The translations under genes and the position numbers were made by a program. The notes beneath the pieces were generated by a model. The model saw only the letters and a program-made list of their open reading frames with translations. It was not told the origin of the DNA and made no database searches. Positions 7,001 to 13,000 of a stretch of 64,000 nt of DNA are shown here, in pieces (the first letter of the stretch is position 1; every line of letters begins with the position of its first letter). The DNA comes from a virus (Duplodnaviria; Caudoviricetes). Location: IMG/VR virus record IMGVR_UViG_3300028139_000001, positions 19,516-83,515 of that record; one strand, 5' to 3'.

Positions 7001-10000
7001 ACATACTGTTGAAACTCGGTGTTTAATTAGAGAAGCTGCACTACTTCGGAAACGTAATAAACATTCCGAAGAAACACGTGCAAAGATTAAAGCCGCATTA
7101 ACAGGAAGAAAACTTAGTGAAACGGCTATTGCCAAACTTAAAGATACATTAAAACACCGTATATGAAAAAAACATAGTATTGAAACTAGAGAAAAAATGA
7201 GTGAGGCTAAATTAGGCCATATACACTCGGTGGAAACTAAACAAAAAATTCAAACATCCCGAAAAAACAATCCTGTTGGAACAAAAATTTGTATAAATAA
7301 TATTAAAAAAGGAGAAAATCTACACTATAAGACTATTTCCCATGCTGCTACTGCAATAGGTGTGGATCGAACAACAATTAAAAATTATTTAATCTCTGGT
7401 AAATTATTAAAAAACACATATTATATATTAGGAGAAGGAGAAATAAAAGTATCTCCACTCGACAACAAAAACAGTGTTAAAACAACTAAGCCAGGGTATT
7501 CTTCGATCATAGTGGAAAACATAAAAACTAGTGAAATAAAAGAGTATTCAACTATACATGCTGCTAGCAAGGAGTTAGGTATATATGGGTCTAAATTGAA
7601 AAAATTCATGCTTTCAGGTGAATGTTTTGATAACACATATATTATAAGAGCCAAATAGAGTATACTTAAAGGTAACTATTTTAATGATTAAATCCCTTTT
7701 TTTTTATTTGCATTTTTTAAAACAGGTTTGTAGCAATTGACCTTAGTTAAGTCTTCTGTTGAGTTCTTTATAACTCACATAGACTAGGGAGGGTAGGAGG
7801 GTTTAAATCTAAACCTGTTAGATTAACATGTGTGAATAAATTAGAAGACACTGTTGTATTTCCTAGTTTAGGTAATTGTGTGGAATATTTACAAAGGTTT
7901 ATCTGCTTCTCAAGTAACATTAGTTAAACACATTGATTTAGGTAAAGAATATAAAGGATATTTATGTGAATATGTGAAAGAAAATACGTTGTAATGGGAT
8001 TCATATAAAATTTATAACTGTATGCTGGGATAGCTCAGTGTTTATAAGTACTTAATAGTAAAAATCTTGTAAGCTATGCTTAATCAGCAGGAAACCAAAG
8101 TAATTTTAATTATGATAGGGTTCTTCAGAGACTACACGTTATAGACCGTATATTAATACGCTTAAGATATAGTCCACAAATAGTTACTATTTTAACTATT
8201 TTTAGTCATGACAACTGCATTTAATATGAGAAGTCCTGGTATAAGATTACATAAATTAATTCTATTTGCATGAGCTGTTGTAATAACCGCAGTTCTGCTA
8301 TTATTATCTCTTCCTGTTTTAGCCGGTAAACTAAATCTGCCGGCTCTAAATTTGGCTGTATTCTGGGAACAGTTATACGAAAGTATATCGCAACCAGCAG
8401 GTAATCTATTAAGTTTGAACTTTTTAGAGAACCTCAGAGGCTATACGCCAAAATATTTTTGCTGTAGTTTGCAACTTTTGACCTTTCCTTTATGCACAAC
8501 TGTTAGATGTATTCATACTGATAACAACAGTAATAATTTAAATAAATCCCTTTTTAGTTCTTATTTAACCGGGCTTATTGAAGGTGATGGTACAATAATT
8601 ACACCCAAAACTTTAATAAGCCCTAAAGGTAAGTTAAATTACCCCGCTATACAAATAGTTTTTCATTTAAAAGATTTACCTTTAGCTCTACTTGTTCAAA
8701 AAGAGTTAGGTGTAGGTTCATTATCTAGAAAAAAAGGGGTAGATGCTTATATATTAACCATAAATAGCTATGAAGGTATATTATTAGTTATTTCATTAGT
8801 AAATGGAAATATGAGAACACCTAAAATACATAGTCTTAATGCATTAATCGATTTTTTAAATAATACTAAAGAAACTAGTATTGAAAAACATCCTGTATGT
8901 ATAGACTCTATCGATTCCAACCCATGACTGTCAGGGTTTATAGAAGCAGACGCTTCTTTTCAAGTAAGAACTACTCTTTCAGGTAAATATCCTTCTCCTG
9001 CCATGTGATCTGGGAAATCACAAACTGTGGGAGTTAAACAATCAAATTACGGGGACACCCATATAATCGAAAGTGCAATGGACAATCGCGTAGCTAAGTC
9101 TGCATGTTTACTTTTAAATTTTACTTCTTCTGTAGGAGGTTTATTTCAAAAAATAAATAATGCAGTAAAAGTGCAACGAGTAGATGGTTGTTGACAAGTT
9201 GGTGGTGCTTCTTGTTTAAGGAATACTCTAACGGGTTTTGTAAAAAACCCTAGAACCAAAATCCCGTCTAAACAAATAAATGTAGTCAGATTTTATTCTT
9301 CGGCTAATGATAAATTAATAACTATGAACCCTTGATTTGTCACAGGATTTTCGGACGGTGAAGGGTGCTTTATGATTTACATTAGAAAAAACTCCAAGTA
9401 TTCTACAGGTTGAACAGTACAACTTGTGTTCAGGATAGGATTACACAAAAAGGATGCCGTTTTACTTTATTCAATTCAAAAATTCTTTGGAGTTGGGAAA
9501 ATTTATCACGAGAAGGATGTTGTTTATTATCAAGTCTTTTCTAATAAACATCTCTTATTAATAAGAGACCATTTTGATAAATATCCATTAATTACCCAGA
9601 AATTTGCGGATTATTGTTTATTTAAAAAAGCTTTTGATATTGTAAAAAATAAACAACATTTAAGCAAACAAGGATTACGTGAAATTGTATCTTTAAAGGC
9701 TTCTTTAAATAGAGGTCTTTCTCCTATATTAGAAAACTCATTTGCAAATATTATTTCCTACCCTAGACCTAGTGTCTCAGATTTTAAAATTAGAGATCCT
9801 CAATGATTAGCTGGATTTGCTTCAGCTGATGGATGCTTTTTAATAAGGATTCTTAAATCAAGTACATCTCTGACAGGATATCAAATTGTTTTAGTATTTA
9901 AATTAACTCAGCATTTTAGAGATCAAGAATTATTTAGAAGTCTAGTTGACTACTTAGGGTGCGGTAATGTATATCTTAGTGAAACAGCGGTAGACTATGT

Positions 10001-13000
10001 AGTTACAAAATTAACGGATATCACAGATAAGATTGTTCCGTTATTTCAGAAAAACTCCATACAAGGGGTAAAATATTTAGATTTCTTAGCTTTTGTTTCA
10101 ATCGTAGAATTAATGAATAATAAAGTTCATTTAACAGAAAAAGGGGTAAATCAAATTAAAGAAATAAAAGCCGGAATGAATAAAGGAAGAGACAATTAAT
10201 TTGTCTTATTTATTTGCATGATAAATTTGGTGGTCGTGAAAAAATTAGAATGTAGATTAGAAATCTCTCAAAGACGAGAAGATCACAAAGGATATGATAA
10301 TTTCGATTTCTTAAGTAATATTGCTGAGTTTTTAGAAACAGAAGTAAAAAAAATAAGATCGGATAGACCGAAACCTGAGTATAGAGTTAGAACTACTAAT
10401 CTTAAAGGTAATATTAAAGCTAAAAATTATCTTTTACAATTTCCTCTATTTGGAACTAAACATTTAGATTCATTAGATTGAATGGAAGTAGTAGACATGT
10501 TTGATAAAAAGGAGCATAATACAGATGAAGGAAAGAAAAAAATAGTAAAGATCAAATCAGGTATGAACAATTTCAGAACAAATTTTACTTTTGATCATTT
10601 ACAAAACTTCTACAACTTAAAAAGGGGGAACCCTCTATTTTTAAGTGCTCACAGACACGATTCTACTGAAGGGTCAGTAGTTCCAGTCAAAATCTACTTA
10701 AATGCGGATCTAGATAAGCAAGCTATAATTACCGAAAATAGAGGTAAATCGGGTATTTATCTTTGGGTAAACTTAAAAAATAGTGAAGTATATATTGGTA
10801 GTAGTGTGAGCCTAGGGGTCAGACTTAGAAAATACTATAGCCATTATTATCTTACAAAAGGTAGTAAAGGTATGTACATTTCTAGAGCTCTATTAAAATA
10901 CGGGTACTCAGGGTTTAAACTAGAGATTTTAGAATACTGTGCTCCAGAAAAGTGCCTTGAAAGAGAACAATACTATATCGATAAATTAAACCCTAAATAT
11001 AATGTCCTACCTACAGCCGGTTCCCCTCGTGGTCGTAAACATACAGAGGAAGCCCGTAAATTAATGTCAGAGGCTAAAAAAGGTAACAGAAATGCCACTG
11101 GTCATATAGTTTCTGAAGAAGTCCGAGCCAAAATGTCGGAAGCTAAAAAAGGGTGGAAAAGGCCAGAAAGAGCTGGACGTCACCCCGTTCTGATAGAAGT
11201 AATAGATCTTGAGACAGGAATGACCCAACAATATCCCTCAATAAGGGATCTTTCTAGAGCCATAGGTGTACATGCAGGAAGCATTAGTAATTATTTATTA
11301 CCCCCTAGTGGAAAGTCTTCCTCAAGTAAAACTAAAAAGCCTTATAAAGGTAGGTATATATTTAAATATATATAAAAACATATACCTTCCCTATCCTTGC
11401 TTTCACCTCTGTGGAAAAAATTTATATTGTAGGGGGCTGCTAGGTAGCCTAAAAATAAAATATATTTTTTTTGCAAGGGTAAAACCAAAACCTGAAAATT
11501 TATATAAAAATATAAGATATAGTCCGATCAAGCACGAGAGTGTTTGCGTGCCTACACTAAGGTTTAATAACCTTTTTAAGCTTAAAGAACAACACTAAGC
11601 TATGTGATTTCATCAAGTAGGCCAACAATTTTAATGGGAATAACTATGGTTCTAACGGACCGTAACTTTAATACATCATTCTTTGAGGTAGCAGGGGGTG
11701 GGGATCCTATATTATATCAACATCTTTTCTTCTTCTTGGTTTTATTACCAAGTAAATTTAAAAATATATCATATCATGATTATATAAATTGAGAATATGA
11801 ATGCTGTCCTAAGCCCCACTCGTTTGCAAATGTTCCATTACATAGTGTACCGCCAAAATTCAGTGCTAGATGGCAGCCCTATAATCGTGATCAGCAAAGG
11901 GGAGTACAATTAACTAACCGTCGTTCTGAATCGCCAGATGGAATAATCGATCAACTAAGGGCAGCACCATTAACTACCCGTCGTTCTGCATCGCCAGATG
12001 GAATAATCAATCAGGAAAGGAGAGTACCATTAACTACCCGTCGTTCTCCATCGCCAGATGGAGTACTCGATCAGCAAAGGGGAGTACCCTTAAATAACCA
12101 TCGTTCTGAATCGACATATGGAATAATCGATCAACTAAGGGCAGCACCACTAACTACTCGTAATTCTGCATCGCCAGAATTAATACCCCGTCTTCCCTCT
12201 CCTCCTATAGCAGCATATCCAGGCTGGGATACACCTGTAGAGCGGAGTGGTAGATTTATTGAATGACGTAGGCAGAGAAGATTAATACCTACAAATGAAC
12301 AGCTAGTTCAATTAGAGGCTGATTTATGGTTTTACCAAGATAAACTAATTTCAAATCCTAATTGTACTGCTCAGCGAGATATTGATGCTATTCAAAGGGA
12401 AATTCTTTTAATAAGAGAACGGTTACGTACGGAAGAGATAACACAGCGACTAAGAGAGTCCCAAGCACAACCGGAAACACAGCCGGAAATACAGCCGGAA
12501 ACACAGACGCAAACACAGACGCAAACACAGCCGCAAATACAAGAGGAACCGCAACAACGTCATCCCTCAGGTTGGACACCTATTAATTGGAAACCTGGTG
12601 ACCCAACTACAAATGCTTGTATAACTCTTGTTAGTACAAGAGTGTCCCCATTAGTTGTAAGTATGATAAACCATTTAAGACCATTATTAAGTCTAATAAT
12701 ACCTTTAGTCTTATCTGCTTTAACTTTGATTAGTTTATCTTTCATTTCAGATATTCATATCTTGTTAACTAGTATGTTAGGTGAAATTTTTGGGTCAGTT
12801 CTTTGGGGTTTATGAATAGTTATAGTCTTTTTATTAAGGCTAGTACTTATGATTCGTAAAGCTAAAAAGTCTGTTGTTCTATATGAAAAATTCTTTAATT
12901 TTGCAGCTAATCATTATTCATCTTGAATACTATACTTTTTTATCTTTTTACTAAGTGTAGGATTAGTCTACTGTTGTGGTTGTAATTGTAATTGTGTTTG

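Follow-up and report, generated by a model that had tools for sequence, protein, structure and literature searches.

A group I intron nested within the endonuclease gene of a fungal mitochondrial cox1 intron

The window (the entire 64,000-nucleotide stretch of DNA analysed) carries a fungal mitochondrial cox1 locus, the overall anatomy of which is confirmed as an intron nested inside the nuclease gene of another intron (Table 1). The outer element, a group I intron of cox1, has homologous copies in the related sequences L002 and L001. Its removal is documented by contigs of two metatranscriptome assemblies, X4 and X5, both of which contain the outer joint (depth 8814 and 2747, respectively), and the intron-less cox1 sequence at this insertion site reads ...CCGGT/GGAATAAC.... 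The 5' core of the outer intron is translated in frame with the upstream exon. In the L002 gene call, cox1 and cox2 appear as a fusion. Under translation table 4, the window shows two consecutive open frames: 8196-10199 (667 aa), with Pfam matches to COX1 and three LAGLIDADG_1 stretches, and 10200-11375 (391 aa), with matches to the C-terminal part of LAGLIDADG_1, GIY-YIG, NUMOD3 and NUMOD1. The gene caller renders the upstream frame as a single 663-aa protein (P0001), and the frame call to 10199 bears out the proposal of an earlier sequence-only reading that, unspliced, the frame stays open through a whole ribozyme into an inner LAGLIDADG gene. The downstream frame of 379 codons is likewise intact and in phase.

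Table 1. Features of the nested cox1 intron in the window
Feature	Position	Strand	Evidence or remark
cox1 exon (ends LPVLAG)	8206..8327	+	Upstream exon joined to 8206 in RNA contigs; Pfam COX1 match
Outer group I intron of cox1, 3309 nt	8328..11636	+	Joint 8327->11637 in RNA contigs
Outer LAGLIDADG gene, N-terminal part (motif 1 LTGLIEGDG; ends SGKYP)	8328..8993	+	Pfam PF00961
Inner group I intron, 1245 nt	8994..10238	+	5' splice site after U8993; terminal G at 10238
Inner ribozyme	8994..9295	+	Helices drawn; covariation; covariance model
Inner guide sequence GGGAAA	9012-9017
Inner P2	about 9020-9030
Inner P3	9037-43/9186-92
Inner P4	9047-51/9089-93
Inner P5	9059-62/9078-81
Inner P6	9100-05/9160-65
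Inner P7	9178-82/9224-28
Inner P8	9194-98/9211-15
Inner P9	9233-39/9244-50		GUAA loop
Inner double-motif LAGLIDADG gene (GFSDGEG, GFASADG)	9330..10199	+	Stop 10197-10199
Inner intron 3' tail	10200..10238	+	In-frame ATG at 10218
Extra AAA (Lys) codon	10239..10241	+	Missing in every uninterrupted homologue
Outer LAGLIDADG gene, C-terminal part	10242..10623	+	Pfam PF00961, profile positions 26-102
GIY-YIG module, 881 nt, just before the LAGLIDADG stop	10624..11504	+	Missing in L002 and L001
Outer intron 3' core, including AAGATATAGTCC (J8/7-P7')	11505-11636	+
Next cox1 exon	11637..11730	+	RNA contigs: joint and loose end

The outer LAGLIDADG gene is split into two parts, and its two LAGLIDADG domains come together in one polypeptide only once 8994-10238 is conceptually removed. 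The N-terminal part is 93% identical to the uninterrupted homologues P0002 and P0004, the DNA of which lies in L002; comparison with them sets the start of the insert in the window exactly at 8994. The C-terminal part shares 92% identity with L002 and 88% with L001, and between the two interrupted copies (window vs L001) its dN/dS is 0.18. Around the insertion point the uninterrupted L002 allele reads ...AAATATCCT/AAATTAGAATGT..., while the predicted ligated 8993/10239 junction is ...GGTAAATATCCT/AAAAAATTAGAATGT.... The expectation that splicing restores the outer LAGLIDADG thus stands as far as the open frame is concerned, since the 3' junction of the window is +3 (in phase) and not +1 or +2; the restoration would not be exact, as the ligated frame encodes GKYP-K-KLEC, with an extra Lys found in 0 of the 57 uninterrupted homologues checked. 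In the spliced outer protein this residue probably sits in a beta-hairpin turn.

We found that the inner element 8994-10238 is a genuine group I intron, and its position at GKYP/K, as first proposed, is borne out by the uninterrupted homologues, the core helices, covariation and a covariance model. All 39 pairs of the core, comprising P3-P9 with the P3/P7 pseudoknot, form in the window. Across 102 family members 86% of cells pair, compared with 33-47% when the partners are slid, and the observed values were reached by none of 500 shuffles. The covariance model R1, built without the window sequence, matches at 9157-9257 (78.8 bits, E 8.7e-15) with zero non-standard pairs. R1 also matches about 34165-34261, the site of the only Rfam group I match of the window. 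Rfam RF00028 (Intron_gpI) gave no match in 7900-11700, at the gathering threshold or at E<=10, a result that is uninformative for ORF-bearing mitochondrial introns; the long ORF splits the model, which is tuned to other subgroups. Of the P1 pairing that had been drawn, the U.G pair at the splice site (U8993.G9012) and the GGGAAA guide hold; two C-G pairs and a U-A pair follow, then an A8989/A9016 mismatch, which departs from the drawn helix, and two further pairs. No convincing P10 next to the splice site was found by inspection. [quoted passage not shown] The alternative in-phase terminal Gs 10229 and 10232 lack family support.

The inner intron represents a short subtype without the ~95-nt P5 extension that is present in 99 of 102 relatives. 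Its 3' tail pairs back to the ribozyme region, AUUUAUUUG (10209-17) with CAAAUAAAU (9283-91) and UUUGGU (10226-31) with ACCAAA (about 9254-59), the latter read by eye in about six sequences; compensatory changes in these pairings occur in L003, L004, L005 and L010, i.e., in few sequences. The inner intron lies within the ORF that separates the 5' core half of the outer intron from its 3' half. It leaves the outer core uninterrupted and so counts as nested in the broad sense (PMC8393795), not as a strict twintron, in which the outer intron can splice only once the inner one has left. The ribozyme also bears on an explanation in which there is no intron, and an endonuclease gene was inserted in frame to give one long functional multi-domain protein. 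We regard this as extremely improbable: the single open frame 8196-10199 and the predicted 663-aa P0001 would suit it, but the 340 nt preceding the inner LAGLIDADG make up a complete group I core with covariation, cox2 and nad6 hold the same family unit as a true intron, and the stop at 10197-10199 truncates the outer enzyme.

The family to which the inner intron belongs is widespread, with nad2, nad4, cox2, cox3, nad6 and genes of that sort as its normal hosts. In all copies with a junction read here, insertion follows a CCU or UCU codon, which pairs with a G-rich guide; the relatives share a guide of the GGGAAA type, and the LAGLIDADG gene of the family is located 3' of P9. A nad3 relative was also noted (P0164). 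The short subtype was found in a nad6 gene as well (L003), the reading frame of which is otherwise intact, and therefore presumably splices there. A ribozyme-encoded peptide is common to family members fused to cox2, nad, cob and cox3 exons. Upstream-fused frames that stay open across the entire ribozyme are usual in the intron family and represent no special adaptation at this locus.

The inner LAGLIDADG gene matches PF00961 with an E of 2e-67, its ORF is intact and both motifs carry their acidic residues, features by which it can be classed as a putative homing endonuclease. Its dN/dS relative to the L001 copy is 0.22. The GIY-YIG module is flanked by TAAAAA repeats and consists of a coding part up to the stop at 11373-11375 (GIY-YIG, two NUMOD3 and one NUMOD1; PF01541, PF07460 x2, PF07453), followed by 129 nt of non-coding sequence. 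The GIY, YIG, R, E and N residues are all visible in its translation, and from its sequence the product is predicted to be a homing endonuclease with a catalytic domain and NUMOD DNA-binding modules. The earlier description of an outer LAGLIDADG running straight into a GIY-YIG is right about the frame, which is open to 11375, but the GIY-YIG is a separate insertion; having landed before the outer stop codon, it borrows the frame of the outer gene. P0027 carries, at this very position, a fused GIY-YIG that is unrelated (42% identity) and represents a second, independent case of this layout. In-frame ATGs occur 3' of the inner gene, the first at 10218 and more beyond it, and from there the C-terminal half with the GIY-YIG could be translated without splicing.

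As for splicing of the inner intron, the 8993/10239 joint, the RNA junction by which it was to be recognized, is present in none of the X4 or X5 contigs, although the outer joint is seen. Contigs with a depth of about 400-1200 cross both inner splice sites unspliced, the RNA depth is flat across the inner intron, and the intron is retained at the depth of the rest of the outer intron, in RNA libraries that could include DNA contamination. Contigs can drop rare forms, so the missing joint limits the efficiency of splicing and leaves room for splicing itself.

The presence of the inner intron differs among relatives: L002, a close one (dS 0.07), is without it, whereas the more distant L001 (dS 0.33) has it, which implies recent gain or precise loss. 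L001 is the only other copy of the nested arrangement, and its upstream frame is closed. It carries 10 additional nucleotides after the homologous terminal G, so that the outer frame is not restored there, and a 71-nt insert in L1. The real acceptor in L001 may be a downstream G (AAAGTG/), which would restore GKYP/KLEC exactly.

The lack of the spliced form in two RNA assemblies, together with flat depth, would be explained if the insertion were dead, i.e., if the inner intron no longer splices and the outer LAGLIDADG is a split pseudogene. The inner LAGLIDADG alone would then be made, as an upstream fusion; the C-terminal half with the GIY-YIG would come, if made at all, from the ATG at 10218 or a later one. 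The P1 mismatch, the weak P10 and the missing P5 extension point the same way, as do the frameshifting +10 nt and the 71-nt insert of the sister copy and the in-frame ATG at 10218 itself. We nevertheless consider a dead insertion rather unlikely. Under the family model the core shows no flaw, and the short subtype occurs in an apparently intact nad6 gene; the 379-codon downstream frame is intact with a +3 phase, a dN/dS of 0.18 separates the two interrupted copies, and the presence/absence pattern in close relatives implies that the intron moved recently or was precisely lost.

The sequence-only reading had gone further and proposed that the expression of three nucleases is set by one splicing choice. 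In such a working translational toggle, inner splicing would be slow or regulated, its rate tuned so that the cell or the element selects either the inner LAGLIDADG or a LAGLIDADG-GIY-YIG double nuclease from the outer gene, and the in-phase +3 of the window, as opposed to +10 in the sister copy, would be a selected repair. Both frames are open, the 3' junction is +3 with no frameshift, three sets of catalytic motifs are intact, and a precedent exists in mS1247, where an intron acts as an on/off switch of an endonuclease gene (PMC8393795, PMC4801052). The proposal is not sustained, given that the spliced form is unseen in X4/X5 contigs, internal ATGs are available and the frames are broken in L001, where both open frames are missing. 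Moreover, the open frame through the ribozyme is the family-wide default, the GIY-YIG is a late add-on that is missing in relatives and can use internal ATGs, and no regulatory element was identified. We therefore find both a regulated toggle and a selected +3 repair doubtful.

The explanation that we hold to be the likeliest, if by a cautious judgement, has three layers of selfish elements stacked on each other; in it the inner intron is still able to splice, rarely, and the alternative frames come about through the nesting itself. The first layer is an ordinary cox1 group I intron whose LAGLIDADG, located between the core halves, is translated as an exon extension. A second group I intron would have invaded this outer gene after the Pro codon of GKYP, and the 881-nt GIY-YIG module would have come as the third layer, just before the outer stop codon. 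Splicing of the inner intron at G10238 may still take place and would yield the outer protein with one extra Lys; it appears to be rare. By default, cox1 RNA that retains the intron would then yield a fusion of the exon, the outer N-terminal half and the inner LAGLIDADG. The alternative frames of the stack would reflect nesting and no regulatory device.

Nested introns in endonuclease genes were already known, as the sequence-only reading stated, and the switch idea itself has been published for mS1247 (PMC8393795, PMC4801052). The published nested case likewise has an inner self-splicing intron that lies in frame within a LAGLIDADG gene, this gene belonging to a mitochondrial group I intron, and that on removal rebuilds the outer gene. 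There, the inner element is an ORF-less group II intron with experimentally shown splicing, whereas in the window it is a group I intron with its own in-frame LAGLIDADG and the spliced form is unseen. Parasitic group I introns with endonucleases inside a resident endonuclease gene are likewise found in nad5-i3, cox1-i2 and cox1-i11 of Annulohypoxylon stygium, whose complex introns hold up to three intron or endonuclease modules per site and differ in presence or absence among isolates (PMC6140425); the insertion sites and intron families are different, and frames and RNA were analysed only for the window. In the mS917 twintron of Cryphonectria parasitica (Hafez et al., 2013), as recounted in PMC6140425 and PMC8393795, a LAGLIDADG group I intron is also nested in a group I intron, yet by these accounts the host intron is ORF-less and, unlike in the window, no endonuclease gene is split. 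Cox2-i1 and cox1-i3/i4 of Hypomyces aurantius similarly combine LAGLIDADG and GIY-YIG in one group I intron (PMC4964425), but with the GIY-YIG interrupted by a LAGLIDADG fragment, whereas in the window it is appended in frame to the 3' end of the LAGLIDADG.

Layering of selfish elements is thus already known, and the window adds a case and no new concept. It provides a well-bounded example of parasites of parasites, with three endonuclease modules and two ribozymes in one cox1 intron, and a close relative without two of the layers makes the order of invasion readable. The analysis also defines a large intron family, with more than 100 members in metagenome contigs, which occasionally jumps into other endonuclease genes, at no fewer than two different sites. 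One short subtype of the family is without the P5 extension. If the toggle were true, the inner LAGLIDADG would carry the inner intron into outer genes that are still uninterrupted, and the +3 repair would keep the second frame usable; controlled inner splicing would then give the engineered mS1247 endonuclease switch a natural equivalent among group I introns.

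The window is a fungal mitochondrial genome rich in introns. Between its cox1 exon ending in ...LPVLAG and the point where cox1 picks up again lies an intron of 3.3 kb. In two phyllosphere metatranscriptome assemblies, X4 and X5, one contig each (depth 8814 and 2747, respectively) joins 8327 to 11637; thus, the outer intron is delimited and splices out under natural conditions. Contigs of X4/X5 also place the start of the exon at 8206 and the end of the following exon at 11730. Translation with table 4 yields the two open frames described in the sequence-only reading: 8196-10199 (667 codons), where Pfam recognizes COX1 and three LAGLIDADG_1 stretches, and 10200-11375 (391 codons), where the C-terminal three quarters of LAGLIDADG_1 are followed by GIY-YIG, NUMOD3 (twice) and NUMOD1. 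The preceding cox1 intron (5260-7658) also carries two GIY-YIG-type frames; a second GIY-YIG domain begins as frame 5260-6780 runs out and continues, with its NUMOD part, in frame 6726-7658, an arrangement suggestive of a pair of endonucleases that is frameshifted or in tandem.

Features of the cox1 region in window coordinates, with the evidence defining them
Feature	Position	Basis
cox1 exon	8206-8327	RNA contigs
Outer intron	8328-11636	RNA joint 8327/11637 in X4, X5
Next cox1 exon	11637-11730	RNA contigs
GIY-YIG module	10624-11504	881-nt insert vs L002/L001

The N-terminal part of the outer LAGLIDADG gene (8328-8993) retrieved hundreds of uninterrupted relatives of up to 93% identity, with the allele L002 supplying matching DNA; judged from these, the insert in the window starts exactly at 8994. 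The translated insert, its 112 codons ahead of the inner LAGLIDADG included, matches, at 94-100% coverage, proteins fused to exons of cox2, nad2/5, nad3, cob, nad1, cox3 and nad4L; therefore, the "linker" before the inner LAGLIDADG is a conserved ribozyme read as protein. Helices P1 to P9 (the last with a GUAA loop) can be drawn from the window and from four relatives carrying the same intron family (L001, L003, L004 and L005), the ORF being bracketed by two long-range helices, and a pattern scan of metagenome contigs located the J6/7-P7-P3' block at >120 loci. Across 102 distinct family members, 86% of alignment cells pair vs 33-47% with partners slid, a level reached by none of 500 shuffles, and compensatory changes are many in P3, P6, P8 and P9. 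The P7-P8-P9 covariance model R1, built from 40 relatives with the window, L001 and L003 left out, scores best in the window over 9157-9257, with 78.8 bits, an E value of 8.7e-15 and standard pairs throughout. R1 also marks three further cores, of this family or one related to it, at 32305-32423, 48111-48258 and 34165-34261 (75, 47 and 31 bits), the last within the window's sole Rfam group I match (Intron_gpI, 33966-34254).

The family 3' end reads GATAAATTTG-NNN-GCYNTG and then exon, a junction set by the cox2 reading frame in L004 and L005; ...GATAAATTTGGTGGTCGTG of the window aligns to it, so that the terminal G of the inner intron is G10238. The boundaries originally proposed (8994 and G10238) are thus correct, and P1 forms, but is weaker than had been stated, with an A8989/A9016 mismatch; a convincing P10 pairing was looked for in the inner intron and not found. 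A highly conserved ~95-nt extension of the P5 region (alignment columns 32-181), carried by 99 of the 102 members, is missing from the window, L001 and L003, which represent a natural minimised ribozyme subtype. This short form is probably spliceable, as the nad6 gene that harbours L003 has an intact reading frame apart from it. At L005/L006:1-52, in mitochondrial-type contigs, a gene call matching Mitovir_RNA_pol (PF05919) lies directly upstream of cox2, which suggests that mitovirus-like sequence adjoins mitochondrial genes.

Relative to the intron-less allele, the insert comprises 8994-10241; splicing at G10238 therefore leaves an additional AAA, giving GKYP-K-KLEC. The spliced frame is open, as had been proposed, but the outer LAGLIDADG is restored with one extra Lys, since exactly one residue separates P and LEC in 57 of the 57 uninterrupted homologues checked. 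Going by the known LAGLIDADG fold, the GKYP-K site presumably lies in the β1-β2 hairpin turn of the second domain, where a one-residue insertion is probably tolerated. The stop codon of the LAGLIDADG gene falls within the J8/7-P7' element of the outer intron in both L002 and L001 (…AAAAATATAAGATATGGTCC); in the window, the GIY-YIG module is placed just ahead of this stop, whereby the frames are fused. TAAAAA direct repeats on both sides of it (10618-10623 and 11505-11510) could reflect microhomology or duplication where the module was inserted. In P0027, a different GIY-YIG (42% identity) is joined to a member of this LAGLIDADG family at the corresponding point; the layout is uncommon but has had more than one origin. 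Anatomically, this is a twintron in the broad, nested sense that includes a third endonuclease module. No ATG belonging to the GIY-YIG itself is found just upstream of the GIY motif; in-frame ATGs occur at 10218, in the conserved tail of the inner intron, and further downstream.

A sister copy, the contig L001 from another sample, has this inner intron too, at the identical site (79% protein identity to the window). Its upstream frame is closed by a 71-nt GC-rich palindromic insert in L1 (L001:16-130; GGTAACCCCGAGAAGGGTTACC...), which is similar to small insertions with inverted repeats reported in PMC6140425. It has 10 extra nt after the homologous terminal G, leaving the outer frame unrestored unless a downstream G is used, and the GIY-YIG is missing. 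The outer gene of the window is much closer to uninterrupted L002 (dS 0.07) than to L001 (dS 0.33), which implies either recent gain of the inner intron by homing or its precise loss. Comparing the two interrupted copies gives dN/dS values of 0.18 (outer C-half) and 0.22 (inner gene), compatible with selection acting on each, the outer-half argument being weaker if the gains were independent.

As for RNA at the inner splice sites, a single X4 contig (depth 1164) is continuous over 8961-11666, and X5 contigs of depth about 400-550 span both sites. The 8993/10239 junction, the check set by the sequence-only reading, is absent from the joints of X4 and X5, where the outer joint was found with sides of just 30 nt. 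The inner intron is covered to the same depth as the outer-intron segments on either side; intron depth is ~1/10 that of the exons and ~2.5-fold different from that of the adjacent intron, which argues that the signal is mostly RNA, not DNA. As contigs lose rare variants, the missing joint limits inner splicing to no more than a minor fraction, and some may still occur. One X4 contig departs from the window upstream of 11451 (255 other letters) and another, of depth 16, runs from 11471 back to 8125 across 11 intervening letters; such contigs may represent variant alleles of the intron, a relative present in that sample, or chimeras formed between the 3' cores of adjacent introns, which are alike.

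On balance, we lean towards an inner intron that is structurally competent and splices inefficiently, its alternative products being by-products. That it no longer splices and is a dead insertion seems distinctly less probable. The working toggle between nuclease fusions, as first proposed, follows logically from the open frames, but its use is not supported and we consider it quite improbable: the unspliced form predominates in X4/X5, read-through of the ribozyme from an upstream exon is the family default, L001 has neither frame, and the downstream ATGs offer a route to the GIY-YIG independent of splicing.

Group I-in-group I twintrons (mS917), parasitic introns lodged in the endonuclease ORFs of cox1 and nad5 introns, with as many as three modules (PMC6140425), introns with two endonucleases (PMC4964425) and the concept of a nested intron serving as endonuclease switch (mS1247; PMC4801052, PMC8393795) have all been published; thus, the window twintron adds a case to a known kind of arrangement. 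Most members of the inner-intron family reside in standard genes. In the relative L109 and the protein clusters P0125, P0127 and P0131, it occupies another LAGLIDADG gene, where it follows ...INGELRTP and again continues the frame of the host N-half. With this second, independent site, the family has thus invaded endonuclease genes recurrently.
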